Of a DNA stretch of 64,000 nt, positions 1,013-48,600 are shown in pieces; within the stretch, counting starts at the first letter, position 1; the number at the start of each line of letters is the position of its first letter. This stretch comes from an uncultured Gammaproteobacteria bacterium (GTDB lineage Bacteria > Patescibacteriota > Patescibacteriia > 2-01-FULL-39-33). The notes under the pieces were generated by a model, which was given only the letters and a program-made list of their open reading frames with translations, was not told where the DNA came from and did no database searches. The stretch lies in the NCBI GenBank assembly GCA_964512625.1, contig CAZEKG010000001.1, positions 217,413 through 281,412 on the forward strand, written 5' to 3'. The position numbers and the translations under genes were made by a program.

Positions 1013-3550
1013 TCATTTCTTGCCTTTCTTCGCCGTTAGTTTCTTCGCCTCGGCGATTATTTCTTTCGAAACATGACTAGGCAAATCAGCGACTTTTTCG
1101 ACGCAATGTCCGCCCGGATAAGCTTTAACCGCTTCACCACTCTTAGTCATACCCCAAGCTGAAACCATAACCCCTAAATCGCGCAGCTTATTATCCTCTT
1201 TTATATAAGCACTAAGATCGTCAACTTCACCATCCATAAAAGCCATAACCGCGCGAACCCTCGGCTTGGATTTTTTCTTTTTCCCAGCCTGAACCTCGTC
1301 ATTCAAATCAGCCTCAATTACTTCTCTAACTTTTACTAGGCCGAGATGCGCCGGCGTCCCGCCGCCGATATTAGACTCCAAGCCCTTCCAAACCGCGTAT
1401 TGCTCTTTCGGTCCCCAACTTGATCCGGAAGACTTAATAACGCCGGCCGAGCCGGCTTGAAATGCGGTTAAAGAAGATTTTACATCTAAAGGCGAAATCA
1501 GCTTGCCGGCTCGCTGAGCGATGCGAGTTTTTTCGGCAAAGGAATACAAAGCGTCTTGAAGAATAAAACAAGCAAGTTGCTGTTCGTCTTTCTTTGGCAA
1601 GCCGGAAGATTCGTCAATATAATTCATAGAACTACTGCGATCAACGACGAAATGAATATCCAACCCGCTGTAATCCTGGATCATTTTATTAGTCTTCGCT
1701 TCCATCGCATACCCCTCAGGGTCGTTCGAGCCAGTCCTAATATCCCGGCCAATCATCGTCCAGCTATCAGGCTCATCGCCTATTGACCTTTTAACCGGGC
1801 CTTTAGTCGTCGCTTTCGGGACTAGATTAGTCTCGACGATTTCTTGGAACTGCGTTCTTAATTTTTCTAAGACATTAGCATACTTGAGCCTAGCCTGCCT
1901 TATTTTTTCTCTTACTATCAAAGCTTCCTCGTAAGAACATTCTGCATCTTTTGCCCACTCCCTCGCCTCCCAATCTTTTTCCCTTTCCCGAGTCTCAGCT
2001 TCTTTTTCCGCTTCTTGCATTTTACGCTTCAAATCATCAAGCTGTTCCTCCGTCAATTCCGGCGCTTCCTGTTCGCCGAAGTCACCTTCTCCCGGCTCAT
2101 CCTCCGGCAGCTCATCAGGCATTTCTTCATCCGCGTTCGGATCGCCCTCCGGCGTTGCGTCGAAACGATGCCATTTTTTATCCTCAGTATTATATACCTC
2201 CGTCCAAGCGTGCCGATTGCCCGAATTCAACGATGCGGCGCCATTGCTATCCTTACTCTTGACATAATTGCCGGTCGCCAACCTGGCTTTCACTCCCGAA
2301 GCGGATAATAAGTTTATATAATATGCGTTAGCCACATCGCAATCGGCTTGGCGATGTTCCTCGATTCCCGCGAAATAGCCGACCGGATGATTCTGATAAA
2401 CCTTATTGAACGAGCTGTCATTAGAATAAGTCAAGTAATTCCTAACGAATCTTTTAAGCTTCCTAGCCTTAACTAAATTATCCGTCTCATTTTCTATTTC
2501 CGCGAGCGCTTTTCCGGCGTCAGCCCCCGCATAAGGCGATTCGACCGCTAAGTCATTTTCATTTACTTCTAGCCGTCTTTCGGCTATCGAGCTTTCCGCT
2601 TCGCCGATCATAACTGTAAAACTGATTGGGAATTTTTCCAAGCCTCGCGAATCGATAAGCCAATTGCCATTGCCATCAATTAAAAACTTTAGTTCATCGC
2701 TGGCTTTTACAGTCCTGATATCCGGACGATAGCCGTAAGGCAAAGGGAAATCAGCCAATCTTCCGCCATTAACTTTTCCGCGGAAAACCTTTTTTGAATC
2801 TTCTTTAAGCTCGATTTCCGGTCCAGCAGTCAGCTCGCCTCGTTCAGTCTTCCAACGGGAACCGCCGGCATGTTTATTATAAACATTTTCGCGATAATAG
2901 CCGCCAAAAAACGGATGAACTGAAAAATAACCCTTATTTTCTTCCCCTTCATTTTTCTCCATTTCATCCATAGAAGTATCCATATCATCTCGGCTATCGG
3001 GCGGCATTTCCTCGTTACCTTTTTTTTCCTGACTTTCTTCCTCAACTTTTTCTTCATCTCTTAATTTTCTTAAATCACTGCGATAAGCGTAGTTTAAAAG
3101 CCCGGCAATCTTTTTATTAAAATAATCGTTCCTAACGCTTGACTGAGTGTTAGGCGAGGTTAAGACCTGAAGAGCATTAACTCTTCCTTCCTCGGTTTCC
3201 ACTCCCCTCAATTCGCTTATAACATCTTCCCAGACTTTCGAAGGCGAATAATTGTCATCTTTGGCGGCAGCTAGCAACTCTCTGACTAATCCGTCATATT
3301 CGCTCAAACCGATATCCCTCTGGTTATAAGCCGCATCGCCATTTTTTAAAGATTCGGACGAGCTAAAAATCATCTTGTCCAGCTCCTTCTTAAAATGCCT
3401 TTCCGCCGGCGTGCCCCTTGATTGCCAATCGCGCTGAGCCTCGACATCCTCGGAAGTCCTTATCCGCTCACGCCAAAAACCGGAAGATTTTTTTATTTCT
3501 TCCGATCCATTTTCTAAAATATTAGCTTTATTTTTTTCAACACTGTCCAT
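1013..3550 (-). CDS. cytoplasmic transglutaminase-like cysteine protease domain + C-terminal von Willebrand factor A (vWA) domain protein
   Basis: Cys-His-Asp transglutaminase core (QADCDVANAYY...NRHAWTEVYN...WHRFDATP). vWA MIDAS motif DRSSSM plus GGGTPAHLG. A coiled-coil/acidic linker joins the domains. No signal peptide. Confidence 0.7.
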   Translation of the reverse strand: MDSVEKNKANILENGSEEIKKSSGFWRERIRTSEDVEAQRDWQSRGTPAERHFKKELDKMIFSSSESLKNGDAAYNQRDIGLSEYDGLVRELLAAAKDDNYSPSKVWEDVISELRGVETEEGRVNALQVLTSPNTQSSVRNDYFNKKIAGLLNYAYRSDLRKLRDEEKVEEESQEKKGNEEMPPDSRDDMDTSMDEMEKNEGEENKGYFSVHPFFGGYYRENVYNKHAGGSRWKTERGELTAGPEIELKEDSKKVFRGKVNGGRLADFPLPYGYRPDIRTVKASDELKFLIDGNGNWLIDSRGLEKFPISFTVMIGEAESSIAERRLEVNENDLAVESPYAGADAGKALAEIENETDNLVKARKLKRFVRNYLTYSNDSSFNKVYQNHPVGYFAGIEEHRQADCDVANAYYINLLSASGVKARLATGNYVKSKDSNGAASLNSGNRHAWTEVYNTEDKKWHRFDATPEGDPNADEEMPDELPEDEPGEGDFGEQEAPELTEEQLDDLKRKMQEAEKEAETREREKDWEAREWAKDAECSYEEALIVREKIRQARLKYANVLEKLRTQFQEIVETNLVPKATTKGPVKRSIGDEPDSWTMIGRDIRTGSNDPEGYAMEAKTNKMIQDYSGLDIHFVVDRSSSMNYIDESSGLPKKDEQQLACFILQDALYSFAEKTRIAQRAGKLISPLDVKSSLTAFQAGSAGVIKSSGSSWGPKEQYAVWKGLESNIGGGTPAHLGLVKVREVIEADLNDEVQAGKKKKSKPRVRAVMAFMDGEVDDLSAYIKEDNKLRDLGVMVSAWGMTKSGEAVKAYPGGHCVEKVADLPSHVSKEIIAEAKKLTAKKGKK

Positions 3551-3584: not shown

Positions 3585-4199
3585 TTACACGCTTCTGGCG
3601 ATTTTCTCTAAAAAGCTTTTTACTGCTGTAAAGTCTATATTTCTCTGATGCTTGAATTTTATCGGTTCCTTATTAATATCTTTAAAATATACTAAACTTT
3701 TTAAGACAAGATTGATATCTAAGTCGGGAAACTTTTTACTAAACACAAGCAAGATTTGACTAATCGTCAAATCTTGAAAAATAAAATACAAGTCAACATA
3801 ATCCTTATTTGTCGCGCGACTGACGATAGCTGACAATTTCATGCAGGCGATATCGACAATAGAGGCAATATTTAAATTTTCTTCTTTAATCGTCGGACTG
3901 ACTAACTTATAAGGATAAGAGAAAAAACTGATTTTGATATTATTGTCAATAAATACAGTTAAAGTATCTTTTTCATCCTGAACCTTGACTACCCGATAAT
4001 CGGCAAAAATTTCCTTTACTTTTTTAAATAAAATAGCGGTATCAATCGACTTAGGAGAAAAGAAGTCAAAATCTATACTATCGCGATGCCCCAATTGCAA
4101 AGCCAAACCCGTACCGCCGGCCAGATAAAAATCGGCTTTGAAATTTTTTAACAACGGAAGTATTTGACGCCTTTTAGCGTCTAAGATATCATAGAACAT
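3585..4199 (-). CDS. nucleotidyltransferase, AbiEii/DUF1814-like (type IV toxin-antitoxin toxin family)
   Basis: N-terminal minimal-NTase motif LAGGTGLALQLGHRDSIDFDFF (GG[TS]...DxD), ~200 aa. Tightly linked to a small upstream ORF. Confidence 0.55.
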   Translation of the reverse strand: MFYDILDAKRRQILPLLKNFKADFYLAGGTGLALQLGHRDSIDFDFFSPKSIDTAILFKKVKEIFADYRVVKVQDEKDTLTVFIDNNIKISFFSYPYKLVSPTIKEENLNIASIVDIACMKLSAIVSRATNKDYVDLYFIFQDLTISQILLVFSKKFPDLDINLVLKSLVYFKDINKEPIKFKHQRNIDFTAVKSFLEKIARSV

Positions 4200-4208
4200 A
4201 AAATTTAA

Positions 4209-4478
4209 TTAAAAACGAGAACGAGTTAATTCTCTCTCATTAATATTTAAAATCAGCGACCAATAATGCAGCGACTTATCATTTAATTCTCCCTTAGCGC
4301 CGTAATTAATAACCGCCTTCTTAATGCTTGATTTGGGATAAAAATCGAATAGCCAATCAGTAGCTTTCTTGTCGCCGAAATTAAGCAAATTCAAGATTAT
4401 CCTGACCCTATCCTTTTTAAGGTCAAGCTTACTGAAATCATTGAACCAAAAATACTTTTTTATAAACTTTGGCGGCAT
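4209..4478 (-). CDS. hypothetical 89-aa protein, possible antitoxin/partner of the AbiEii-like NTase
   Basis: Co-directional ORF with a 10-bp gap to the NTase gene. I recognise no family. Confidence 0.4.
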   Translation of the reverse strand: MPPKFIKKYFWFNDFSKLDLKKDRVRIILNLLNFGDKKATDWLFDFYPKSSIKKAVINYGAKGELNDKSLHYWSLILNINERELTRSRF

Positions 4479-4525
4479 AATATTGCTAATTTCTCCCCTA
4501 ATTATATCACATTTTAAGATTCAAA

Positions 4526-5572
4526 TCAATCGCCCGCATACCCCTTAATTACACCTAGAACGGCGTCATATTCTTCGCTGGAACCGATAATCTCCCTGTA
4601 AGAGCATAAGCTGTCATAAAGATTATCATCAAAGCCGGACAATTTCTCATTAAGCTCCTTTTTAGCCTTTAAAACCGTTTTGGGCCTTGGCCAAACCTTC
4701 AAGCCGTTGGTTTGAAGCCCTAAAACGTCGATAACTCCTGGAAATTGGCAAATATCTATTTTAGACTCAGGGATTTCTAATCCCAGCCTCTCTTTAGTAA
4801 AAGAACGGATCATTTTAACCGACTTCTCCGCAACTGGCCGATTGCCAGCCAGAAAAAGCAAGTCATCATTATACCTGATATAATGCTTTATTTTCAATTC
4901 TTTCTTAATATGCCAATCAAGCTCGTTAAGATAAATATTGGCTAAGACCTGGCTAGTTAAGTTTCCTAAGGGCAACCCCTTGCCATTTTCGCCAAAACTG
5001 ACGATTACCTGGCTTATGATATTTGAAATCAACTCATTCTTAGTTCTCTTTCTTAAAATAGCATTTAAAATATTATGATCTATGTTGCTGAAATATTTTT
5101 TAACATCCATCTTAACGGCTAATGTCCGGCGGCTGCGATACAGCCGAAAACAATTGCCGATAAAATATTTCCTAGCTAAATGAAGTCCCTTATTCGGACG
5201 GGAAGCGTAGGAATGGAAGTAAAATATTTGATCATATTTATGAAAAAGATAATCGAAGATGATTTGATGGACGACCCTGTCCCTGACCGAGGCTACATAA
5301 ATATCACGCTTCTTCGGATCGTAAATCCTAAAATGCTGATAACCGCCATGGCGATAACGACCGCTTGCCAAGTCATGATATAATGAGTTTACTTCGCTCT
5401 CAAGATTAAGCCAAAACTCCCTAACTAGCCTTTGACGAAGTTTTCCGCGACGGAATTTTTCCCATTTCCAACATATATTTTCTTTACCAAATAATAATTC
5501 ATATTCTTCTATGAGTCTCCCCCCCCCCCCCGACTCTTTTAAAGCTTCCATTTTTTCACAAACTCCGCTCAT
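4526..5572 (-). CDS. diversity-generating retroelement (DGR) reverse transcriptase
   Basis: RT motifs: YIRYNDDLLFL (motif C, YxDD-like) and the DGR-typical LPLGNLTSQVLANIYL (I/LGxxxSQ). It sits immediately downstream of a TR that has a cognate VR. Confidence 0.9.
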   Translation of the reverse strand: MSGVCEKMEALKESGGGGRLIEEYELLFGKENICWKWEKFRRGKLRQRLVREFWLNLESEVNSLYHDLASGRYRHGGYQHFRIYDPKKRDIYVASVRDRVVHQIIFDYLFHKYDQIFYFHSYASRPNKGLHLARKYFIGNCFRLYRSRRTLAVKMDVKKYFSNIDHNILNAILRKRTKNELISNIISQVIVSFGENGKGLPLGNLTSQVLANIYLNELDWHIKKELKIKHYIRYNDDLLFLAGNRPVAEKSVKMIRSFTKERLGLEIPESKIDICQFPGVIDVLGLQTNGLKVWPRPKTVLKAKKELNEKLSGFDDNLYDSLCSYREIIGSSEEYDAVLGVIKGYAGD

Positions 5573-5975
5573 TTTAAAAAGTTATTTTCTATACCGCGAA
5601 ATACTTAAATTAACTAAAGACTTTCCTAAGGTTTACCGCTACGGCTTAGGAGAAAAAAGCCAAAACGCCATCTTAAGCATAATTGAAATTACTTCTCAGG
5701 CACTTTATAGCCGGCAACCATTAAAAGAGCCTTTGATACTAAAGCTTATCGGCATCATACAAACCTTGCAGCTTTTTATCCGCTTGGCTTATGACGAAGA
5801 ACTGATAAGCGAGCGGAACTTTTTTACCCTAAGCGATCAAGTAATCGAGCTAAACAAAATGGCGGCGGGCTGGCTAACCTCCGTTCGCTCGCCATCCCAG
5901 CCTAAAGTCGAACCCTCGCCGAGAAACGGAAGCCGCTGTTCGAATTCGCATCCACATCATCCCTGTTCAAGTTGA
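5511..5975 (+). CDS. avd: Avd-like accessory protein (four-helix-bundle / 23S rRNA-IVS protein family). Start uncertain; the 3' end reads through the TR.
   Basis: DFPKVYRYGLGEKSQNAILSIIEITSQA...LILKLIGIIQTLQLFIRLAYDEELISERNFFTLSDQVIELNKMAAGWL resembles the FPKxE+YGLxSQ+RRAAVSI...SLxELxxQL...GYI four-helix-bundle pattern of DGR Avd proteins. It lies on the strand opposite to the RT, TR and target. Confidence 0.45.
   Translation: MSLPPPPDSFKASIFSQTPLILKSYFLYREILKLTKDFPKVYRYGLGEKSQNAILSIIEITSQALYSRQPLKEPLILKLIGIIQTLQLFIRLAYDEELISERNFFTLSDQVIELNKMAAGWLTSVRSPSQPKVEPSPRNGSRCSNSHPHHPCSS
5519..5531. repeat. 13-nt homopolymeric C tract (G13 on the coding strand of the RT gene, codons 14-18)
   Basis: Direct read: tctc + c x13 + gactc. 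It encodes the SGGGG stretch of the RT. Confidence 0.9.
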
Positions 5976-6034
5976 GCTGGGAATCGTCGGAATTCCAATT
6001 GCCGTTCGGCACATTGCCGTCAGAAGCGACCGGC
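5914..6034 (-). repeat. DGR template repeat (TR), 121 bp
   Basis: Aligns to 6381-6501 with 15 mismatches. Fourteen are at positions where the TR minus strand has A. In the VR frame the TR carries nine AAT/AAC codons. Confidence 0.85.
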
Positions 6035-6232
6035 CTCCGTTTCTTATCGTCCATAATCTCTTAACCCCTAAACCTGCCGAAGCAGACCTATCTAAAAACT
6101 TCCCTTGTTGACGCGTGAGGATATGTGAATCAAAGCGCTAAGAAACGCCTCCATTGCCCTTTAGCAATGCTCTGCCATAAACTCTTACGCTACCCGGCAA
6201 ACCAATTGCTTTTTTATTGGAAGTCGCTCAAA

Positions 6233-6252
6233 CCTGCCTGCCGGCAGGCAGG
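6233..6252. repeat. 20-bp perfect GC-rich palindrome (cctgcctgccggcaggcagg) between the VR and TR
   Basis: The sequence is its own reverse complement. It lies 111 nt 3' of the target-gene stop. Confidence 0.7.
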
Positions 6253-6362
6253 TACTTCGTCCGCTTAGCGGCGGGGTCAACTTCATTAAAAAACAAGGTT
6301 ATATTAGCCGGCTTTAAATTCTAAATTTAAAAATAAATAATAATCAAACTGAATTATAAAAC

Positions 6363-9300
6363 TTAAATCTTGCGAGGGATCCTCACCGAGAAACGGAAGC
6401 CGCTGCGCGAATGCGCATCCACAACATCCCCGTCCAAGACGAGCTGGGAAGCGTCGGAAAACCAAATGCCGTCCGGCACACTGCCGTCAGAAGCGACCGG
6501 CAGGTCAATAAAGCGGGAAAAAGTTCCGCCAGTGCGCCTATAATCATCAAGCGGTACGAGATCGTTTAATGCTTTGGCTTCTAAAACGCGATCTGTAAAA
6601 CGATTTTGTAGGATAAGATACTCGGCAATAGAAGTGATATTGACCATTTCTAAGGTTATGCCTTCATTCAAATCAATAAACTCTTGCTTGATCTTTTCGA
6701 ATTCCGCTTTTTGAGCGCCTAAGGCTTTATTCTTCGTTCTCTCCTCAGGCGATTGAGAGGGAGTAATTAAGGAAATATATGGAGATTCGGGAATGCTTAG
6801 GACTGCCTGGAATAGGAGTTCCGGATCTTCGCCGGCCTTTAAAAAAGGGGCGATTTCTGCTTTTAACTTATCCTTTTCCTTTATAGTCATATCAGGCTTC
6901 CCGGCGATCTTCTCCATAAAAGAAATGAGACTATCGATATAATCCCAAAGATAAGTATCGGCGACTTGACCTTCCTGCCCATCTTTCTTAAATCTCGGCT
7001 TAAGTTTTTCTATAGCCGTTTTAAGGCCTTTTATTTGAGCTAAACGCCCAGGCACGAAAAGCGGGATCTCGCCCAATTCCATTCGCGATCCGATAAGCTC
7101 GATATCTTCCTCGCTAAGATTAAAATCTTCCATATTTTCCGGCAAATGTCCGGCCATATTCCTATCGAGCCAAAAAGTTACTTCTTGATAGGCCCGCCTG
7201 TCTTTAGATAATATTTCCTGGAGATCGACTTCTAAATCCTGTTGTTCCGGATTATTCGCTTGATCTATTATTCCCGCTTCCTTAAAAGCTTCATGATAAG
7301 GATTTTTAGCGTTGAAAACAGTAAACTGGTAATTGCCATGCAGCCTTTCCAGCTCGTCAAGACTGTCGATTATTTCCCGATCGCCTTTTCCCGACTCGAC
7401 TAGCCATTTTCCTTTAAGCTCAGGAAACTTAGCGCACTCTTTAATTAAGCCGACAAAAGTAAAAGTCAAATCTTCTCCTGCCTTGTCCGGAGAAACATAC
7501 CGCCCTTTCGGCGCGGCCACCTTATCGAGCGATACTTTGACCCTTTTCTTGCCTCCATAATCGATGAATTCATCGGCGTATTCGGGGGCAGCCGGCGTAT
7601 TATCTTTTATTTCCGCTTTTCTTGGCACTCTGGGAGATAACTGCGCCAATTCCTTATCCGTTATGATATCTAAGCTTATCTTAGGGCCGGCCAAGGGTTC
7701 CAGCTTCGCATTCCCGCCGCCGGCAATAAGTCCATATTCAGCAAAAAGCTTAATGTAAAGATCCTTGTCTTCGAGATAATCATCAGCCGTAAAAGCGGTT
7801 TCCAGCCATTCGACTAATTTTTCGGAGAGAAATGATTTTAAAGACTTACCCTCTCGAGCCAATAGGCGGTATTCTTTTAACCAAAGAAAAATATCGCCCG
7901 GAGTTAGGACGCTGCCCGAAATCAGCGCTTCCGGATTGCCTCGGCTCAAGATATTATCTCGTCCGTAAAGGTTTTCGTAAGCTTGGGAAAGCGCTTGGGC
8001 TAAGCGCCAAAGTTCGCCGCCGGCTTTAGGATCGCCATCGAGAACTTCTTCCGTAATATTCTTACCGTTTTCTTCCTTATGTTTTTCATTATATATCGGC
8101 CCTAATTCCGCCTTGTTCGCCTGAATACGATTAGAATCATCCATCAGGGCGACTAAAAAGGTTTCGAACAATTCCGGGTTTTCGGCTGACTGAGGGAAAT
8201 ACTCGACCGGAATCATTTTCATTTTTCTTTGGATTTCCGGCGTATAGCTGGTGCGGCGGAATCTTGAGCCAGCCGGATTCTGGGCGCCGAGCACAATTGC
8301 TTTGGATAAGACAAGGTCTTTCGGATCGGCGCCGTTAGTAGAATAGCCTGTCGGCTCTCCGGAGCGAAGCCGATCGCACAAAGTCGCTAAAGTCCCGATA
8401 TCTTCCGCTTTATTCGCCTCATCGATAAAAACCGCCAAGCCCTGATGTTCGGGAGATGCTTGATCAGCTGTCTTTTTTCCAGTCAAACCGTATAAGACCG
8501 GGCCGTAATCCGTTCCGCCCCTAAGATTCTTATCGGCTAAAAGCTCTCTATCAACTTTCATTCTTTCATCAGCTTCCTTAATAATCGGCGCCTCGCCGGT
8601 AAAAAGCTGGGCGACAGCCTTGGCTAAAGTCGTCTTACCGGTACCCGATTGCCCTTCCAGGACGACCATTCTTAAAGTATTGGCCGAAGCGACAGCATCT
8701 TCTATCGCTTCCAATATCTTATGCCGGCTTTTAGTCCACATAAAATGATCCGGCCCGTCCAATTGTTCTTTTAACTCTTTAAGCTCGCTGAAAACCGCCC
8801 TGGCTGCCAAGTCCGGATTTTTAGCTAAAAGCTCAGCTTGCCTAGCTTTATTTTCCGCCATGGCCGAGGAAGCAATAGCTAATTCTTCCAATACCGCGCC
8901 TTTTTCTCGGCCCTGGCGCAAACCCTCAAAACGCTTCTTTTGAAGCTGGGCTTCCTCTTCTTCCCAAATATCCTCGTCATTCCTAAGCTCTTGATATTTC
9001 GGCCAATTGCCGTTAACCGAAGCCCATTGCTCGGCATACTTTTTCATCCCTTGCTCATAAACTAATCTTGTTTCTTCATCGCTGTACATCTCTTTAAGTA
9101 AAGAGAGAATTCTGGCGTTTTCCAGACGAGATTTGAATTCCTGAGTTAAGGGATTTTCGTCATCGAATATATCCATGAGAGCGAGCGACTGGGAATCTCC
9201 AGACTCTCTTTTTTCTTTAATATACTCAAGCCAAGAGTCCTTAAAGCTCTGCCAGAAACTCCAAAGAGCTTCCGCTTTCGCTTCCGGGCCTTTTTCTCTA

Positions 9301-9428
9301 AGCTTTTTTAGGGAAAACTCCCTGATTTTTTTCTCTTTCGGAGATTGTTCTTCTTTAGCAGGAGTGATTTCCTGAGCTGTCTTCTCAAGCGAGAAAATCG
9401 ATTTTATTTTCGGGTTTTTTTCCGGCAT
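6363..9428 (-). CDS. DGR target protein: MoxR-like AAA+ ATPase with C-terminal variable (CLec/FGE-like) domain; no signal peptide
   Basis: Walker A VLEGQSGTGKTTLAKAV, Walker B/sensor VFIDEANKAEDIG (the DEaNrA pattern of MoxR/AAA_5), and a coiled-coil N-terminus. The C-terminus ...DGSVPDGIWFSDASQLVLDGDVVDAHSRSGFRFSVR is encoded by the VR. Confidence 0.8.
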   Translation of the reverse strand: MPEKNPKIKSIFSLEKTAQEITPAKEEQSPKEKKIREFSLKKLREKGPEAKAEALWSFWQSFKDSWLEYIKEKRESGDSQSLALMDIFDDENPLTQEFKSRLENARILSLLKEMYSDEETRLVYEQGMKKYAEQWASVNGNWPKYQELRNDEDIWEEEEAQLQKKRFEGLRQGREKGAVLEELAIASSAMAENKARQAELLAKNPDLAARAVFSELKELKEQLDGPDHFMWTKSRHKILEAIEDAVASANTLRMVVLEGQSGTGKTTLAKAVAQLFTGEAPIIKEADERMKVDRELLADKNLRGGTDYGPVLYGLTGKKTADQASPEHQGLAVFIDEANKAEDIGTLATLCDRLRSGEPTGYSTNGADPKDLVLSKAIVLGAQNPAGSRFRRTSYTPEIQRKMKMIPVEYFPQSAENPELFETFLVALMDDSNRIQANKAELGPIYNEKHKEENGKNITEEVLDGDPKAGGELWRLAQALSQAYENLYGRDNILSRGNPEALISGSVLTPGDIFLWLKEYRLLAREGKSLKSFLSEKLVEWLETAFTADDYLEDKDLYIKLFAEYGLIAGGGNAKLEPLAGPKISLDIITDKELAQLSPRVPRKAEIKDNTPAAPEYADEFIDYGGKKRVKVSLDKVAAPKGRYVSPDKAGEDLTFTFVGLIKECAKFPELKGKWLVESGKGDREIIDSLDELERLHGNYQFTVFNAKNPYHEAFKEAGIIDQANNPEQQDLEVDLQEILSKDRRAYQEVTFWLDRNMAGHLPENMEDFNLSEEDIELIGSRMELGEIPLFVPGRLAQIKGLKTAIEKLKPRFKKDGQEGQVADTYLWDYIDSLISFMEKIAGKPDMTIKEKDKLKAEIAPFLKAGEDPELLFQAVLSIPESPYISLITPSQSPEERTKNKALGAQKAEFEKIKQEFIDLNEGITLEMVNITSIAEYLILQNRFTDRVLEAKALNDLVPLDDYRRTGGTFSRFIDLPVASDGSVPDGIWFSDASQLVLDGDVVDAHSRSGFRFSVRIPRKI
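6381..6501 (-). repeat. DGR variable repeat (VR), 121 bp, covering the last ~40 codons of the target gene
   Basis: See TR. The VR ends 15 nt before the stop codon. A single non-A mismatch (TR C vs VR T) lies 5 nt from the 3' end, in an IMH-like position. Confidence 0.85.
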
Positions 9429-9530
9429 ATATGCTTAATTAATAATTGATGATTAACCGGCTAATTTTCAATACTGAAAAGCGGCCGATTTATAGACTAA
9501 TCATAGAGGAATAATAAACTAATATCAAGA

Positions 9531-11180
9531 TTATTGATTCAGCCGATTCTTCCCCGCCTCGACAAGCCCGGCAAAAAGCGGATGAGGCCGGAGAGGCCGA
9601 GACTTGAATTCCGGATGGAATTGAACGCCAACGAAAAATGGATGAACACCCTTAGGTAATTCGACGATCTCAACTAATTGCCCATCCGGCGAAGTCCCGG
9701 CGATAACCAAGCCGTTACTCTTCGCCATTTCCAGATAATCATTATTGAATTCATACCTATGGCGATGGCGCTCTATAATATTTTTATCTTTATAAAGACT
9801 AAAAGAAATCGACTCTTCGCTAAGAACGCAAGGATAAGCTCCTAAGCGCATCGTATTACCATATTGATTCTTCGCCAGCCTCTCTGCCTGCTCCGGCATG
9901 ATATGAATAACGGGATTAGTAGTCTCTTTATTTATTTCGGTCGTATTAGCATCTTCAAGACCGGCCGTATGGCGCATAAATTCAATCGTCGCCAATTGCA
10001 TACCGTAACAAAGCCCGAGATAAGGAATATTATTTTCCCGCGCGAACTTAATAGCCAAGATCTTCCCCTCTACTCCCCGCGAACCAAAGCCGCCAGGAAC
10101 GACTAAACAATGATAATTATTCAACTCACTTACTTTTTCCGGCTCCTTCTCATAGATATCTGAATTGATCCATTCGATTTCCGGCTGAACCGATTGATGC
10201 CAACAAGCGTATTTCAAGCTTTCAATGACTGAGATATAAGAATCAGAAAGAACGAAGTCCCCCGTTTCAAAATATTTTCCGATAATGCCTATTTTCAGTT
10301 TCGAACCTTGGTTTTTAGTTTTCTCAACAAACTCCCGCCACTGATTTCCATCCTTAAGCTTCGGCTCCAAGCCGAGATCAGCCAGGATCTTATCCGATAA
10401 GCCTTCTTTCTCAAAATTAACCGGAATATCATAAACGCTCTCTACATCGGGCGCAGAAATAATATGGTCTTTTTTAACATTACAAAATAAAGCCAACTTC
10501 TCCTTCCGAGGCTCATCGATCGGATGAGTCGAACGGCCAAGAATGAAATCAGGCTGAATACCGACATAGTTAAGCTCCCGTGAAGCCATTTGGGTTGGCT
10601 TCGTCTTCATCTCGCCGATTTTTGATGGTACAGGAAGATAACTAACAAGAACGAAAAGCACATCATTAGGCTCCCTAAGATGCATCATCCTAGCCGCTTC
10701 TAAGAATAAAGCGTTTTGATATTCGCCGACCGTTCCGCCGATTTCAATCAAGGTGATATCAGCCTCGGCTTTTTTCGAGGCCCGCTCAATCCTTTCCATG
10801 ATTTCATAAGGAATATGAGGAACCGCCTCGACGCATTTTCCGCCATACTCAAGATTGCGCTCCTTATTAATAACCGAAAGATAAACGCGTCCGGTTGTCA
10901 TATAATTATCGCGGAAAATATTAACATCGAGAAAACGTTCGTAATTGCCAATATCCTGATCAGTTTCATCGCCGTCTTCCGTGACAAAAACCTCCCCATG
11001 CTCGACCGGATTCATAGTCCCAGCATCAACATTAAGATAAGGATCTATTTTAACCGCCGTTACTTTAAAACCTCTTTCTTCAAGTAGCCGGCCAATCGAA
11101 GCGCAAGCAATTCCCTTGCCGACTCCTGACATAACCCCGCCGACGATAAAAATATATTTCTTTTTTTTCTCACCTTCCAT
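9531..11180 (-). CDS. pyrG: CTP synthase
   Basis: N-terminal KYIFIVGGVMSGVGKGI...; C-terminal glutamine amidotransferase domain; full length 549 aa. Confidence 0.95.
   Translation of the reverse strand: MEGEKKKKYIFIVGGVMSGVGKGIACASIGRLLEERGFKVTAVKIDPYLNVDAGTMNPVEHGEVFVTEDGDETDQDIGNYERFLDVNIFRDNYMTTGRVYLSVINKERNLEYGGKCVEAVPHIPYEIMERIERASKKAEADITLIEIGGTVGEYQNALFLEAARMMHLREPNDVLFVLVSYLPVPSKIGEMKTKPTQMASRELNYVGIQPDFILGRSTHPIDEPRKEKLALFCNVKKDHIISAPDVESVYDIPVNFEKEGLSDKILADLGLEPKLKDGNQWREFVEKTKNQGSKLKIGIIGKYFETGDFVLSDSYISVIESLKYACWHQSVQPEIEWINSDIYEKEPEKVSELNNYHCLVVPGGFGSRGVEGKILAIKFARENNIPYLGLCYGMQLATIEFMRHTAGLEDANTTEINKETTNPVIHIMPEQAERLAKNQYGNTMRLGAYPCVLSEESISFSLYKDKNIIERHRHRYEFNNDYLEMAKSNGLVIAGTSPDGQLVEIVELPKGVHPFFVGVQFHPEFKSRPLRPHPLFAGLVEAGKNRLNQ
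9553..9591 (+). repeat. 39-bp direct repeat, copy 2 (inside the pyrG 3' end; encodes RPHPLFAGLVEAG)
   Basis: Exact match to 905-943. Confidence 0.8.
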
Positions 11181-11289
11181 AAATATTTAAATTATTTTTT
11201 ATTTTTTGGGTTTTATTTCATAAACTTAAAAAGAAAAATAGAGGTAATAAGCCTCTATTCTCTTCTTAAAATCAATGTTTTATGATATT

Positions 11290-11733
11290 TCATAATTCTT
11301 CCACTGTTAACATGAACTCCGTGTCAAGACTATGATCAAGGGAAGCAGTAATCATAAAATCACCAGATTCCTTTACCGGCTCCTTAAAAATAATCTTGTC
11401 TTTAGATATTTCGATGCCTTTTTCCTTTAACTTGCTAACTACCTGGCTCGCGGTTATAGCGGCATAAAGCTTGCCGGAATCATTAGCCTTCGCTTTAATA
11501 ATAATTGACAATCCCCTTAGCTTCTCCGCCAGTTTTTGAGTCGCTTTTAAATCCTTAACCGCTTTAAGCCTTAAAATTTCCTCCTCTTTCTTTTGGGAAT
11601 TGACCGTATTTTCATTAGCAATAACTCCGAGCTTTTGAGGCAAGATAAAATTCCTAGCGAAACCTTCCGCCACTTCTTTTATTTCACCTTTTTGCCCTAC
11701 TCCTTTAATTGCTTTTAATAATAGGATTTTCAT
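11290..11733 (-). CDS. rplI: 50S ribosomal protein L9
   Basis: MKILLLKAIKGVGQKGEIKEVAEGFARNFILP... matches the L9 N-terminal domain. Confidence 0.9.
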   Translation of the reverse strand: MKILLLKAIKGVGQKGEIKEVAEGFARNFILPQKLGVIANENTVNSQKKEEEILRLKAVKDLKATQKLAEKLRGLSIIIKAKANDSGKLYAAITASQVVSKLKEKGIEISKDKIIFKEPVKESGDFMITASLDHSLDTEFMLTVEEL

Positions 11734-11800
11734 AATCGCTTAATTTTACAATTTCATTTTATCACCCTCCTAAATACCTTGGCAATACTCTTATCGAATT

Positions 11801-13075
11801 CTATCTTAATAATTCTAAAGCCTTATCCATTTGGGGATCGCGGTCCTTATTAAAGTCTTCCTCAGTCAATTTAACCTCCAAATCAGGACTGATTCCCTGC
11901 TCATCGATCGATCGTCCTTTTGGTGTAAACCATTTCGCGATCGTCAACTTAAGGCTTGAGCCGTCAGGCAAGCTTTCCAATTCCTGGACTGAGCCCTTGC
12001 CGAAAGATTTTTCTCCGACGATCTTCGCCAAGGCGTAATCCTGAAGAGCGCCAGCAACAATTTCCGAGGCTGAAGCGCTGCCACCATTGATTAAAACTAT
12101 TGTTTGATAGCCATTAAGCCTGGTAGCGGTCGTCGGCGCATGAGCGATCTCGCTGCCGTCTCTTAATCTTTCCTTAACAACCGGCTGACCAGCAACCCAC
12201 TCGCCGGAAATATCGATCGCCGACTCAAGATAACCTCCCGGATTATTCCTTAAATCAAAAACTAATTTTTTAACGCCTCTTGATCTCATCTCATTTATCG
12301 CTTGATCGACTAAAGGATAAGTATCGTCGTTGAATTGGCGGACTTTAACGATTGCCACATCGCCCTTGAATTCCCAACTAACGCTTTTAACATTAATTGC
12401 ATCCCTGACGATCTCAAAATCTTTCGGCTGAGTAAAGCCATCCCTAAAAATAGATAAAATGACTTTCGTCCCTTTTTGTCCGCGAATTAGCTTAACCGCC
12501 GCATCTGTACTCATACCTTCAGTACTAGTACCGTTTATCTTGACGATAATATCTTTCGGCTTTAGGCCTGCTTTAATAGCCGGCGTATCAGGTAGCGGGG
12601 AAACAATAACCAAAACTCCCGCCTTAGAAGAAATCTCGGCGCCAATACCTTCGAAATTTCCTTTTAAATCTTCCTGGAATTGAGCGGAATCAGTCGGCGT
12701 CATAAAAACCGAATAAGGGTCATTTAATGAAGCGACGATTCCGGAAACCGCGCCGTAAAATAATTGGGTATCTGGAACATTCTTATCGTAATACTTATCC
12801 TGGACTAATTTCCAGACTTGCCAAAATAGATCAAAATTAGCGTCCTTAACTAAATACTCGGGCACTTTGCCGTCTTGCTTGATAACACTACTAGAAGAAC
12901 TGGCGACAGACGGATCAGCACCCTTAATAACCTCTTGGCCTCCGGTCGAACCGAAAACATCCGCCTGACCTCCGGCGTAAACCCCGGCCGTAAACGATAG
13001 TAAAATAGCCATAGTTGCCAGCCAAACGCTGACCCGGCTTTTAATTATTCTTTGCTTTAATGATTGGAAATCCAT
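11801..13075 (-). CDS. carboxy-terminal processing protease (S41 family, PDZ domain), secreted
   Basis: N-terminal signal anchor, PDZ region, S41 core (...GGSASASEIVAGALQD...). Confidence 0.85.
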   Translation of the reverse strand: MDFQSLKQRIIKSRVSVWLATMAILLSFTAGVYAGGQADVFGSTGGQEVIKGADPSVASSSSSVIKQDGKVPEYLVKDANFDLFWQVWKLVQDKYYDKNVPDTQLFYGAVSGIVASLNDPYSVFMTPTDSAQFQEDLKGNFEGIGAEISSKAGVLVIVSPLPDTPAIKAGLKPKDIIVKINGTSTEGMSTDAAVKLIRGQKGTKVILSIFRDGFTQPKDFEIVRDAINVKSVSWEFKGDVAIVKVRQFNDDTYPLVDQAINEMRSRGVKKLVFDLRNNPGGYLESAIDISGEWVAGQPVVKERLRDGSEIAHAPTTATRLNGYQTIVLINGGSASASEIVAGALQDYALAKIVGEKSFGKGSVQELESLPDGSSLKLTIAKWFTPKGRSIDEQGISPDLEVKLTEEDFNKDRDPQMDKALELLR

Positions 13076-15939: not shown

Positions 15940-18021
15940 TTAATATTGCCAAACGAGATTACTGCCAAACGCCTTCGGTTCGCCTAAAAGATTATTCAAT
16001 TCAAGGATCGCTTGGGGCTTAGCCTTATCAGCTTCGATGACTATATACAACTTAGCGGCTTTAGCCGTTTTTAACGCCTCGCTCAAAAGTTCCTTGGATG
16101 GCTTGCTTAAAATGGAATTATAGAAACCAACCCTTTCCGGCTGTTGGTAATTATAAGCGACCGGAAAATTGCCAAGAACTATCTCTTTGGCCGAATAAGC
16201 TTCTAAAGCTAAAAGCGGCCAAGTATTAGCTAAGACCGCCGAACCTTTCGGGTCTTGTTTCGCCTGATCGAAGACATAAGCCATGGCTCGAGACTCGTCA
16301 GCAGTTACCATAGCATTCATAATCGGACCAGTCGCAAAAATGTAAGTAGAAATCAAAGCCAGGATAAAAGACGAACTGATTAATAAATATTTTTTCCTTA
16401 TCTCTGGAAAATTGGAAACAATAATCATAACTAGAAAGACAACTAAGAAAACATTCAATCTTCTTGATAGATGATTTATGCCTTGGATAAAAAAGCCGGA
16501 TAAAAAGTAATCAAGAATCAGGATAACAGCTATGAAAGCCAAAAGTCGATCCGCTTGCCTCTTCGAATTTAAAGATTTTAATAGCGAGTAGCCTAAGAAA
16601 AAGATAAATAAAATTAGAATCGCCTTAGATAATATATGCTCTCCCTTAAAATCGAAAGGCATGAAATTACCGAACTCGAAAAACAGCCAATCACCTTTAG
16701 AAATAAGTTTTTCAAACATCTCCAAGCTCGGCAAGTTAAGATTGAGAGAGCTACTGAAACTAAAAAGCTCGACTAAAAATAAAGGAATAATCATAAGGAT
16801 CGAAAACCAGCCTCTTTTATTTTTTTTCGACAGCCAATAAACCAATCCGAGCAAGAGAGCTAAAAGAAAAGCTAAGGAATAGCCGAAATACATCATAACG
16901 GAAAAGAATAATATGAGCCAGCCCCGGCGTCTAGTCGGGTTATTAAGATATCCAGACCAAAGCAAGATTAAACTTAGTAGGCTAAGGACTCCGAAACCGG
17001 CTGGCAAAGTCTGGGCGCCGTAATATTGCAATAAATAAAAACTGTTGCTTAGAGCTGAAAGCAATAAAGCCTTGCCGTTGTCCTTAAAAAGATTAAGCCC
17101 GATAAGATAAAAAAGGAGCGGCGCAAAAATAGACCAGACTCCGAAAATAAAATATTTATTGATCACCTCAAAAGTCCAACCGGTCAATCGATGGATTAAA
17201 ACCGCCCAAGACCACTCAAAGCCGTAAGACAGTTTAGTTTCGGAAATTAAAACCGTAGGAACGCTAAGAGGGCCGATCTTAGACAACCAAAGATTAGGAG
17301 TCAGTAAAGTCGGCTGATATTCCATTTCCTTATCGACTCGTATCTCCGAGCCGATATGGCGCCAAGAGTCCCCGCCGAAGCCGTTGCTATAAACTAATAA
17401 ATAGCCATGAATAGCTAAACTGGCTAAAACTATCAAGACTAGAGCCTTATTATCTTTCTTAAAAGAGAAGATAAAAGAGATAAATAAGATAAGCGCCACT
17501 AAGATTAAATAAGGCCAAAACAAAACCTGCCAAGGAGAAACAATATAGCGCTCCGTAACCGCCGAAAAGATAAAATAATAAGCCGCTAAAGCCAGGATTG
17601 AAGCTAAACCGATAACCCAATAAGCCGCGCGGCCGCTCTTACTAAAAAATATTTTTTCCTCAACCGCCTTAGACTTTTTAAAATAAGCATCAAAGAAATA
17701 AACCTCTAAGCCGGTAAGAGCCATCGCCGAAACTAAAGAAAGATCACTAAGCTTGAACCAAGAAGTGAATATATTAGCAATATAGCCGAATAATAAAAAA
17801 TTAAAAAATATGACTGTCGGCCATTTAAGGTTTTCAGGCAAATAAAAAGCTTTAACTAAGAATCGCGACATTATTCCAGCTGTAATTAAAAACCAAACAA
17901 TGAAAATAAAGCTCTTAAGCCAAAACCAGCCGACTAAGCCAAAAGCAAAATACTCGGACGCCGAGAGGGCCAGTCCGAGAAGAGTTAAATGAAAAGAATT
18001 TATTTTTTTTAGATCAAGCAT
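15940..18021 (-). CDS. large polytopic integral membrane protein (possible GT-C-type glycosyltransferase) with C-terminal extracytoplasmic domain
   Basis: More than 12 predicted hydrophobic helices; I recognise no catalytic motif. Confidence 0.5.
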   Translation of the reverse strand: MLDLKKINSFHLTLLGLALSASEYFAFGLVGWFWLKSFIFIVWFLITAGIMSRFLVKAFYLPENLKWPTVIFFNFLLFGYIANIFTSWFKLSDLSLVSAMALTGLEVYFFDAYFKKSKAVEEKIFFSKSGRAAYWVIGLASILALAAYYFIFSAVTERYIVSPWQVLFWPYLILVALILFISFIFSFKKDNKALVLIVLASLAIHGYLLVYSNGFGGDSWRHIGSEIRVDKEMEYQPTLLTPNLWLSKIGPLSVPTVLISETKLSYGFEWSWAVLIHRLTGWTFEVINKYFIFGVWSIFAPLLFYLIGLNLFKDNGKALLLSALSNSFYLLQYYGAQTLPAGFGVLSLLSLILLWSGYLNNPTRRRGWLILFFSVMMYFGYSLAFLLALLLGLVYWLSKKNKRGWFSILMIIPLFLVELFSFSSSLNLNLPSLEMFEKLISKGDWLFFEFGNFMPFDFKGEHILSKAILILFIFFLGYSLLKSLNSKRQADRLLAFIAVILILDYFLSGFFIQGINHLSRRLNVFLVVFLVMIIVSNFPEIRKKYLLISSSFILALISTYIFATGPIMNAMVTADESRAMAYVFDQAKQDPKGSAVLANTWPLLALEAYSAKEIVLGNFPVAYNYQQPERVGFYNSILSKPSKELLSEALKTAKAAKLYIVIEADKAKPQAILELNNLLGEPKAFGSNLVWQY

Positions 18022-45603: not shown

Positions 45604-48600
45604 TTAAGGCGTCAAGCCTTCTTCCGGAGGAGTCTCGACTATAACAGTCGAATTATCAGCCGGCGTTTCAACGCTGACAGTCGGCTCTTCGACAATAGGC
45701 TCAGAAGGCGTTTCTAAAGCCGGCGGCTCAACTTCAGGATCAGTACTACTTGAGACAGTCTCTTCAGGCATACTGGAAGAGGCTTCGGTACTTGAGCTAA
45801 CAGACACCTCGTTATTATTTCCGGACTCGGTCGAATTACCGGAAGAAACATCAATTGAATTATTATTATTTTCACCGCCGATAACTTCCCCAACATTCGA
45901 TTGATCACTTGAGGAAGCGTAATTAAACCCGTCAACCGCTAAAGCGTGCCAACCAAACTCGATGTCGCTAGAAAAAATCGGATCAATATTAAGCCTGAAG
46001 CCAGTCTTTGATTCTTCACTAATCCAATAAGTTGAAGGTTTGATATCGTTTCTCGGGGTAGCGGTAATGATTGGGATCCAAAGGTATTCTTTCGAGAAAT
46101 TAACTTCCGTCGAAGTGGCTCCGGCTAAAAGCTTGACAATTCCGGCCATATCGCGATTAAAGTAAACCTGATCCTTAAAGACGACTTTAGAGGTAAAGTT
46201 AGCCTCGCCAATAACGGTTATACTGCCGACAAAATCAGCTTCCTGGTTAACGGTTATACGGGCAAAAGAAGCGTCCGCAGTAACAGTTATAGGAGCATTA
46301 AATTCTTGAGATTCCTTAAAAGTAAAAGAATAAAGAACTTCCCGTTTTCCAGAACTAGAAGTCGACGAACTAGTTGAAGCGCTTCCGGAAGAACTATTAG
46401 CAGATACTTCATTTTCAAGAGAAGAGCTATTTCTAATTAACATCATGATCTTTCCAGTTGAGCCATTAAAGTCTTCAAGCGCTACACCAATAATACCGAC
46501 TGAGCGAGCAGTCGCTTTCATGGCATGACCAAGAGTGTCGGAAGTCGTCAATAAATCACCCGCTTTAATCGAGCCATTTTCTCCCGAAACCTTAACCGGA
46601 ATACGACCGGCCAAACCAATTCTTACAGCATCATCACCAGCGTTTTCGGCGCTCATAACTACGCCTGGATCAGTTGTTACCGCTCCTAAGACTCTTGAAT
46701 CATAACTCTTACTACTTAAGGTAACTTTTTCTTCGCCAGCCGCAATTAGAACATCACCTTCTTCCGGTTTTTGGCCGATATATTTTATCCACTCAGCGAT
46801 ATCAGAAGAATTACTAACGACGCCACCGGCAGTATATACCTTGCCCCTACTCCAAATACCGATACTGGCAGTAGAAGTTGTATCGACATATAAACCGTAA
46901 CCGGTTTGCTGAGAACCAATAGTCAAACCATGCGTAAGAGTTGAAGTAGCAATAGCAACTTTAGTAGTACTTACATACATAGCAACTACCCTATTAGATC
47001 CGCCTCCAGTAGCAGCATAATCTTCCTTAAAAATCCTTAATAAGCCGCCGTTAGCATCAATATTCCATAAATTGCTTTTATTCGAAGCGGGAAGAATCAC
47101 TCTAGTATCAATTCTAGCTTCACCAGCAACATGAAGACGATTACCAGGAGTAGTAGTTCCGATGCCGACGTTACCACCCCCCTGAATAGTCATCAAATTA
47201 TTCATCACTCCAGCATTAGTATAATCATATAATCTAAAACCTCCGATATTTCCTCCAGCTCGATTGGAAACTAAATCAATCTCTCCTTCGCCCCCTGAAT
47301 AATTCCAACCAGTAAGTAGTTTTCCTGAACTTTGCAAAGGAACTAAAGAATATCCTGCTGTCGGATCCATATTTTTACCTGCGACAATAAGACCTCCTGC
47401 GCCATTCACATCTAATTTTCCACTAGGTGCTGTTAGACCAATCCCCACATTACCAGTACTAGCAATAGTCATTTTATTGGAATCATTAGCAAAGAAATCC
47501 AAATAACCTGTTCGAACACCAAAACCATAAAAATCAGAAGTACCGTCATAAACGGCCAGCTTCTTAGCCGTAACATCAGTACCCAAAGACAATTTAACCA
47601 GAGGCGCATTAGTTCCAGTCCCGACTCCCAAATACCCAGCTGAACTAATAGTCATAACATTACCGGTTCCAAGAGAAGAAGTAGCGATAGTAAAATAATC
47701 ACTAGCAGACACATCATTGCCGATTGACCATTTAAGGACTCCTGATTTCCTAAACTCCATAACACTATCTCCGCCGGCGGCAGCACCAACAGCTAAATTG
47801 CCTGTCGTCGTTACATTGCCGCTAGTGTCGATAGTAAAGTTATTGGCACTGCCGACAGTAAATAGTTTTGATGGAGTTGTCGTTCCGATACCGACATTAG
47901 TTCCATTATCATATAAGACTCCCGTACTTAAGGTATTAGCATCGCTCCAACGTGCCACATAACCAGCAACACCAGTCATAGCAGTAAAGGCCCCTGTACC
48001 ATTACCTTTTACAACACCAGTTAAAGTACTTGCTCCAGTACCGCCATTAGCAACAGATAGGACAGTTCCTGACCAATTACTATTATTTATTGTATTTAAA
48101 ACCGCTAAAGATCCGAGGCCTAAATTAGTTCTTGCTCCAGCAGCTGTAGAAGATCCAGTACCCCCATAAGCAACGCCAATAACTCCACCTATCCATGTTC
48201 CTGAAATATTACCGGAAACAACCAAATTACCAGAAGTTGTTGCATTCGTTACCTGAAGACTGCCAAGAGTCATTGCACTAACCGTACCAGTTAAGTTAAT
48301 GGATGGTGCCGTTAAAGATATAGCTTGAGTCGCCGACAAATCAACATTGGAGTTGGTTCCATTAGCATTAATACCAATACTAGAACCATTGCCGTTAGTT
48401 TGAATAGTAAGCCCATGACTATTGCCAACTGTTTCCATGGTTAAATTCGTACCTCCAGTCATTGTTAAGGTAGAACTACTATTCATATTTATACCGCCAC
48501 TGCCAGTATTAAACAACTGCAAGGCGCCATTGATCGTATTAAGTTTTAAATTCTGACCGGTATCAGCATAAAAATTCAAATTAGTCGCATCACTAGTAAT

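Follow-up and report, generated by a model that had tools for sequence, protein, structure and literature searches.

Within a 64,000-nt stretch of contig CAZEKG010000001.1, the whole of which was analysed and is called the window here, lies what, judged by its sequence, is an intact, complete diversity-generating retroelement (DGR) of the type known from the Candidate Phyla Radiation (CPR). Along the minus strand, which is the sense strand of all three parts, a target gene for a 1021-aa ATPase (6363-9428) carrying a variable repeat (VR) is followed by the template repeat (TR) and by the gene for a 348-aa reverse transcriptase (RT; 4526-5572); an avd accessory gene (5511-5975) runs antisense to the RT on the plus strand. 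We regard it as highly probable that the whole is best explained as a complete chromosomal CPR-type DGR in Patescibacteria, together with a model of RNA priming and homing that we propose below. An initial annotation of the window had already called a complete DGR, with the TR between target and RT on one strand, and this call stands; its parts list fell short, missing the antisense avd, the AAA+ nature of the target, the CPR precedent and the conserved RNA upstream of the TR.

Repeat search and mismatch tally place the TR at 5914-6034 (minus strand) and the VR at 6381-6501 (minus strand), a direct repeat of 121 nt that aligns without gaps at 88% identity. Fourteen of the 15 mismatches fall on plus-strand T of the TR, which is minus-strand A, so that 14 of the 26 sense-strand adenines differ as against one of the 95 other positions (Fisher one-sided p=1.7e-10), and the count proposed in the initial annotation is thus borne out by the tally by TR base that it had suggested. 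At non-adenine positions the two copies agree in 94 of 95 cases. The lone exception, TR C vs VR T on the minus strand, sits 5 nt from the 3' end of the repeat; it had been read as a difference between the initiation of mutagenic homing sequence (IMH) and its TR counterpart (IMH*), a reading that conservation of the site across related loci upholds. The IMH-like 3' boundary of the VR (6379-6386, minus strand) reads GTGAGG followed by a VR-specific flank, AT, and its counterpart in the TR reads GCGAGG and then GT; IMH in the VR differs from IMH* in the TR at this boundary and is never transferred. A third repeat copy was not found in the window, probes from both TR ends matching the TR and the VR only.

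The VR lies in frame at the 3' end of the target open reading frame (ORF), where it covers codons 976-1016 and ends, as the initial annotation had it, 15 nt ahead of the stop codon. Eight AAT/AAC (AAY) codons are present in the TR; nine had been counted before, although the replacement residues then listed are confirmed by codon comparison (Asn to Ser, Asp, Ile, Phe, Val, Asp, His and Arg), and three further altered codons are likewise as described (GAT to GCT, AGG to GGG, GAT to GTT). Across the 18 A-containing TR codons no stop codon can be reached by an A-to-N change, and the theoretical repertoire from these codons amounts to ~10^15 peptides.

The RT was identified by Pfam RVT_1, its best match in the PDB and its motifs. 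LGNLTSQ fits both the [LIV]GxxxSQ signature of DGR-lineage RTs and the LGxxxSQ motif that had been pointed out initially, and YNDD is present as well. Among solved structures, bRT of the Bordetella phage matches best (8ub7, E=7.7e-31); a group II intron RT (6.7e-20) and retron-type RTs come behind it. The nearest named relatives of the protein are from Magasanikbacteria, Vogelbacteria and Patescibacteria. In the public gene call the protein begins at Met8 (position 5551) and is 341 aa long.

The avd gene shares 62 nt with the RT gene where the 5' ends of the two overlap. Its product matches Pfam bAvd (E=3.4e-8, 34.4 bits, under the cut-off of 40) and, from position 2 to 103 of the 104 in the profile, NCBIfam DivGenRetAVD (E=1.5e-8, also under cut-off), orthologues occupy the corresponding antisense place in 7 loci, four of these having precomputed PF22296 matches, and a single-sequence structure model consists of four long helices. 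An Avd is therefore assigned from below-cut-off profile matches, conserved orthologues and four predicted helices taken together. The conserved part of avd stops near 5900, and a non-conserved tail extends into the TR. The stretch in which avd and RT overlap at their 5' ends contains a C13/G13 homopolymer (5519-5531), the sole G or C run of at least 8 nt in the window and absent from orthologous loci, which could be a slipped-strand on/off switch for both genes or else an assembly-sensitive site.

The RNA domain upstream of the template repeat and the edge of the VR

Homologues of target and RT led to seven related, complete loci (L001, L003, L005, L012, L013, L014, L015), which together with the window form the eight-locus set used here. 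The gene order target with VR, TR, RT is common to all seven. Their TR/VR mismatches number 13-19 at A sites each with at most five others (extended alignments), so differences almost confined to TR adenines are found in the window and in all seven. An antisense avd ORF lies between TR and RT in five of the seven; none was found in L012 or L014.

In all eight loci an element, CCTCACG(C/G)G, is invariant 50-88 nt ahead of the TR. In the window it is CCUCACGCG with a 5' flank AU (6112-6122, minus strand), which we call anti-IMH and consider a candidate primer strand. Its CCUCAC is the exact complement of GUGAGG, and the VR ends with GTGAGG in 8/8 loci; TR ends vary (GCGAGG, ATGAGG or a different flank). 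The complementarity runs past the VR end into the flank private to the VR: in the window it is perfect over AUCCUCAC / GTGAGGAT, the stretches at the other loci are ACCCTCAC, AATCCTCAC, AAACCCTCAC, CACCCTCAC, CCCTCAC, TCCCTCAC and TGTCCTCAC, and 7-10 perfect pairs form in 8/8 loci. Moreover, the first flank pair (+1) covaries, being C-G in five loci and U-A in three. Between element and VR end 90% of alignment cells pair, with a covariation of 0.271 vs 0.127 after shuffling, a value reached by 2/500 shuffles; between element and TR end the core is broken in 6/8 loci and there is no covariation. By covariation, then, the comparison shows that pairing of the element with the VR edge is selected, although which molecules are the partners is not identified in this way. 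In four loci the TR has A at the discriminating position and the VR has G in all four, so this base is never copied and, by extension, the starting point of cDNA synthesis or homing must be 5' to it.

When sought in other VR classes (L016 and a second DGR of L014), the anti-IMH gave only 6-7-nt matches that are possibly due to chance, which is why we claim it for the GFR(F/V/L)SVR clade only. A scan of viral contigs for CCTCACGCG..GGGTTWAGR returned 59 loci, mostly one unrelated phage coding sequence, and no TR/VR pairs. A role of the element as one arm of a DNA cruciform like that of BPP-1 was ruled out as the arms would lie 165-396 nt apart.

Between element and TR lies a structured RNA domain (6035-6111, minus strand), delineated by RNAalifold and pair counts. 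Helix P3 pairs 6106-6112 with 6049-6055, and P4 is a 9-bp hairpin (6082-6090 with 6069-6077) whose loop, 6078-6081, is UUCG in the window and UUCG, UGCG or UACG across loci, P4 being missing from L013 and L014. Helix P2 joins 6031-6044 to 5922-5935 inside the TR. Found in six loci, P2 brings together the stretch immediately before the TR and the 3' portion of the TR that is free of adenine (the 14-nt 3' strand contains no A), and it varies with the encoded residue (F, V or L), the non-coding strand compensating. The window RNA keeps conserved single-stranded UUAGA and GGGGUUAAG motifs, and across loci UUAGAG and GGGUUAAGG are conserved after P3/P4. Across our alignment A5, 89.8% of the cells of the named structure are paired and 15/23 pairs show double changes, values that 0/500 shuffles reach, and slid controls pair at 34-49%. 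No Rfam family matches the domain. A RAGATH-25 match obtained with Rfam at a permissive threshold over 4000-10000 was put down to chance. Downstream of the TR, where the antisense avd begins, neither a complementary strand nor a tetraloop hairpin was found. From comparison of the eight loci it is thus shown that features resembling the BPP-1 spacer (a tetraloop hairpin with a 9-bp stem, and a strand that pairs with the 3' end of the TR) sit upstream of the TR here.

All loci share further conserved blocks ahead of the CCUCAC element: GGYTMATAGAAYC, perhaps a -10 box, at 6297-6309 (minus strand) in the window, and GGTTTGCC and GGCAGAG, near 6200 and 6170. Hence, the conserved leader may be ~200 nt long. 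The TR RNA is predicted to start near 6290-6300, past the conserved GGCTAATATAACC block, and to take in 6112-6122. A perfect 20-nt palindrome, CCTGCCTGCCGGCAGGCAGG (6233-6252, minus strand), stands beside a GC hairpin in a spacer stretch that the other loci lack and may be a terminator-like insertion.

How these parts may work together can be envisaged by analogy with BPP-1. TR-containing RNA would be reverse-transcribed by RT-Avd with misincorporation opposite template adenines, and the cDNA would replace the VR, recoding up to 18 codons within the C-terminal 41 residues of an AAA_5 ATPase that is predicted to be cytoplasmic. In the model that we propose, the CCUCACG strand would form a primer:template duplex with the TR end, such that cDNA starts just 5' of G(C/U)GAGG, and the resulting RNA-cDNA chimera, beginning at the CCUCACG strand, would follow the VR sense strand colinearly through GTGAGG and flank. 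Because the same strand perfectly complements the VR end together with its private flank, the chimera may dock on the sense strand of the VR in preference to the TR, which would give homing its direction. We go one step further, tentatively and at somewhat less than even odds, in suggesting that the DGR RNA of this CPR clade is circularly rearranged relative to that of BPP-1, with primer strand, Avd-binding hairpin and closing helices 5' of the TR, and with a primer strand that doubles as a short guide. On such a rearrangement the spacer-like domain would lie 5' of the TR because the antisense avd occupies the 3' side.

Weighing the alternatives

That an RT unrelated to DGRs (of a group II intron, a retron or a defence system) merely stands beside a chance or duplicative repeat finds some backing in NCBIfam, which lacks a DGR RT model and in which a group II RT/maturase model matches the RT best, though far under its cut-off (119.9 bits vs 300). 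Against this scenario stand the adenine bias of the mismatches here and in seven further loci, bRT as the best solved relative, the presence of Avd and the lack of any intron RNA or retron msr/msd match in Rfam; as far as present data go it is already refuted, and we give it next to no credence. Rather more weight, though still to our minds an improbable outcome, goes to a DGR that looks intact and is now silent, the VR differences being relics of past homing and the C13 tract possibly turning both genes off in part of the population. The tract is indeed the only long G/C homopolymer of the window and lies inside both reading frames, and homing activity as such is putative, a point that weighs against our own reading as well. 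At the present C13 length, however, the avd and RT ORFs are intact, and the stop-free codon design has been kept; moreover, near-complete identity at non-adenine positions (94/95), with the single difference at the conserved IMH/IMH* site, argues for recent homing.

The chief rival of the docking model is that the match between element and VR end reflects RNA-RNA pairing within a read-through transcript of target and TR, serving processing, stability or primer masking, with the primer and the Avd-binding RNA possibly elsewhere. The element lies between VR and TR on their strand, 165-396 nt downstream of the VR end, so both would be on one transcript if no terminator intervenes, and covariation cannot see the chemistry of the partner. 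Yet a covarying domain follows the element directly, and its 9-bp UNCG hairpin is of the type to which Avd binds in BPP-1; nothing comparable is present downstream of the TR, the element is able to pair with the TR end at the very site from which copying has to start, and the BPP-1 primer likewise fits IMH better than IMH*. We therefore deem the read-through scenario unlikely, albeit worth more than the silent element. Several observations do count against the reading that we prefer, a complete DGR with docking of an RNA-cDNA chimera on the VR. The core CCUCAC/GUGAGG is invariant and only 2-4 flanking pairs are informative; covariation is blind to the difference between RNA-DNA docking and RNA-RNA pairing in a read-through transcript; in four loci the candidate pair at the priming end would be a C.A mismatch with the TR unless one base is bulged (RNAalifold); the RNA inferences draw on eight related loci only; and promoter-like sites are consensus matches only. 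On the protein side, membership of the RT in the DGR lineage, closest to bRT, is judged from PDB match and motif, the Avd stays below the curated cut-offs of Pfam and NCBIfam, its model gave nothing significant with Foldseek against the PDB, and sequence and profile searches of the PDB yielded no link to a solved Avd.

Target, partner gene and chromosomal setting

The target combines an N-terminal coiled/helical region, an AAA_5 ATPase domain of the MoxR/midasin-like kind (residues 255-401; 8226-8666, minus strand) and a C-terminal module with the VR (residues 690-1021; 6366-7361, minus strand). AAA_5 scores 28.4 bits vs a Pfam cut-off of 22, Walker A reads GQSGTGKT and Walker B VFIDEAN, and G259, G262-T266, D336 and E337 are invariant in an alignment of four target orthologues. 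Since there is no hydrophobic segment (maximum Kyte-Doolittle hydropathy 1.21 in 19-aa windows), the protein is predicted to be cytoplasmic. Its family is sparsely populated: a word-indexed search of 5.8 G proteins found only four homologues, and for residues 690-1021 there are 68 representatives among 1.84 billion clusters. No relative turned up in a target-family scan of viral contigs and one distant AAA match only in metagenome contigs; among genome contigs, which did not include the window's own genome, four loci were found, none with the clade element or a TR/VR pair. PADLOC gave weak P-loop matches only, and a sequence search of the PDB gave no match.

From the 68-member alignment AlphaFold predicts residues 690-1021 with high confidence (pLDDT 95, pTM 0.93), so the target family's unclassified variable module now has a confident model. 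No Pfam family covers this region, and a Foldseek search of the PDB with the model returned nothing significant. The last ~130 aa may have a weak C-type-lectin-like (CLec) fold; as an unproven candidate assignment, the module may be a strongly diverged CLec-like domain after an alpha/beta domain of no assigned class.

Downstream of the RT, a partner gene (1013-3550, minus strand) encodes 845 aa with a transglutaminase-like core (Pfam Transglut_core) and a C-terminal VWA-like domain. The former has the transglutaminase-like residues C404/H447/D464, the latter a DxSxS motif of the metal ion-dependent adhesion site (MIDAS); a Pfam scan of the partner gave no direct VWA match, and residues 559-842 align with the VWA protein of L003 (E=3e-12). 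PADLOC found no match for the partner and did not recognise a system. Hydropathy predicts a cytoplasmic protein without membrane segments. With AAA_5 over cut-off, conserved Walker A/B motifs and an adjacent VWA-like MIDAS protein, the two genes qualify as a MoxR-type AAA+ / VWA pair; in general scans, which included no dedicated VMAP model, no neighbourhood gene was recognised as a VMAP component. The association recurs elsewhere, as a VWA or ~850-aa transglutaminase-core gene follows the RT wherever the contig continues (L001 and L012 end just past it), and a VWA or Transglut_core gene after the RT is found in L002-L005 and L013-L016. Going by synteny, the diversified ATPase is most likely a variable intracellular ligand sensor acting with the adjacent transglutaminase/VWA protein as a pair of the MoxR-VWA type, the intracellular role being suggested by the lack of membrane segments in both proteins. 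Again from synteny, such a sensor would most likely be coupled to the ATPase and to a protease-like or adhesive effector.

Between RT and partner gene, a toxin-antitoxin pair, DUF6922 and AbiEii (3585-4478, minus strand), has been inserted. A Polbeta/HepT pair occupies the same slot in L002 (1479-2146), and an AbiEii-like gene lies upstream of the target in L012 (1012-1870). In one relative, around P0042, the AAA_5 ATPase, the VWA protein and a variable module that stands alone (345 aa) are encoded separately, by three genes upstream of (avd)-RT, so the fused target of the window has an unfused counterpart. L003 has an 89-nt repeat with a hairpin (7040-7128 and 7537-7625, 92% identical) downstream of VR and of TR, at an offset that differs from that of the TR/VR pair. 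L014 carries a second DGR 4 kb from the first (9947-12885), with a different target of 659 aa, antisense bAvd and RT, its VR at 11783-11925 and its TR at 12205-12350. Independent contigs of a related DGR, L017 (1-30) and L018 (1), end inside or just after the VR. Assemblies tend to break at a heterogeneous VR, and these contig ends may be an indirect hint at activity in that relative.

The other neighbours in the window are housekeeping genes (CTP synthase, L9, a MurA-type transferase, MetRS, RelA/SpoT, TopA). Proteins named Patescibacteria group or Candidatus Buchananbacteria share 71-76% identity with the CTP synthase. Given these neighbours and the CPR relatives of CTP synthase and RT, we place the DGR on the chromosome of a CPR bacterium. 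Two ORFs, 45604-50997 (minus strand, 1797 aa) and 15940-18021 (minus strand, 693 aa), have no Pfam match at E<=1e-5.

Comparison with known systems

Among CPR DGRs, architecture B3, TR-(avd reversed)-RT, accounts for 90% (Wu et al. 2018, PMC5758913), and the core of the window has just this order. CPR targets with midasin-type AAA ATPase domains and a VR class of no assignable fold, 'UVR4', are described there too (PMC5758913), and AAA targets in CPR DGRs are also attributed to Paul et al. 2017 in Dore et al. 2024 (PMC10907252). With CPR B3 DGRs the window shares the layout, a single upstream target, the AAA ATPase domain and the host phylum, and its VR class, like that of UVR4 targets, cannot be assigned by sequence to CLec or immunoglobulin (Ig) folds and is at most a putative UVR4. 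Since B3 layout, AAA targets and CPR host have all been published, the window adds another well-preserved case to a class known in the literature since 2017 and, as a DGR, is not surprising alone. Unlike the B3 elements described, its target family is very sparsely sampled (see above). The CPR DGR texts consulted make no mention of synteny with a transglutaminase/VWA partner or of an RNA domain 5' of the TR; only the latter domain and its match to the VR edge exceed the published descriptions that we found.

The phage DGR of BPP-1 (mtd-avd-TR-brt) primes cDNA at G117 from a spacer strand that ends at A56 and pairs with TR 118-129, and its Avd binds to a tetraloop hairpin located immediately downstream of the TR; hairpins of this type are predicted across DGRs, 9-bp stems being commonest (bioRxiv 10.1101/2023.10.23.563531). 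Naorem et al. (PMC5703328) observed that the BPP-1 primer pairs more extensively with IMH than with IMH* and proposed that primer-IMH pairing sets the direction of homing via an Okazaki-like RNA-cDNA intermediate, and a 2026 study (PMC12875486) still calls the route of DGR cDNA into the VR unknown. The eight loci provide a compact natural covariation test of primer-IMH pairing, which previously rested on one BPP-1 sequence (PMC5703328), and identify a short RNA (about 6035-6122 plus TR) that is open to in vitro study. If true, the rearranged RNA would supply comparative evidence, the first of its kind, for an RNA-target duplex that sets both IMH and the direction of homing. In common with BPP-1, the window has adenine-specific TR-to-VR transfer, a bRT-like RT with [LIV]GxxxSQ, Avd, an IMH/IMH* difference, a 9-bp tetraloop hairpin, a strand pairing with the TR 3' end and a candidate primer strand that fits the VR better than the TR (PMC5703328). 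It differs in that avd is on the opposite strand and downstream of the TR, the spacer-like RNA is apparently 5' rather than 3' of the TR, a GC-rich hairpin directly after the VR is lacking, the target is a predicted cytoplasmic ATPase instead of a phage tail fibre, and the element is chromosomal, not viral.

As for function, the fact that a diversified AAA_5 ATPase is conservedly paired with a transglutaminase/VWA protein points to a variable sensor inside the cells of bacteria with small genomes. This is reminiscent of the DGR-diversified NTPase sensors and the MoxR-vWA-VMAP ternary conflict systems of multicellular bacteria (Dore et al. 2024, PMC10907252; Kaur et al. 2020, PMC7159879), with which the window shares an NTPase joined to a variable, putatively ligand-binding C-terminal domain, and a MoxR-like AAA_5 ATPase gene next to one for a VWA protein, along with a protease-like effector domain. 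Unlike in either (PMC10907252, PMC7159879), where the vWA or NACHT protein bears the VR, it is the ATPase itself that carries it in the window; and in contrast to the systems of multicellular bacteria, the RT appears to belong to a different (CPR) clade and the host is a small-genome bacterium, presumably a symbiont.

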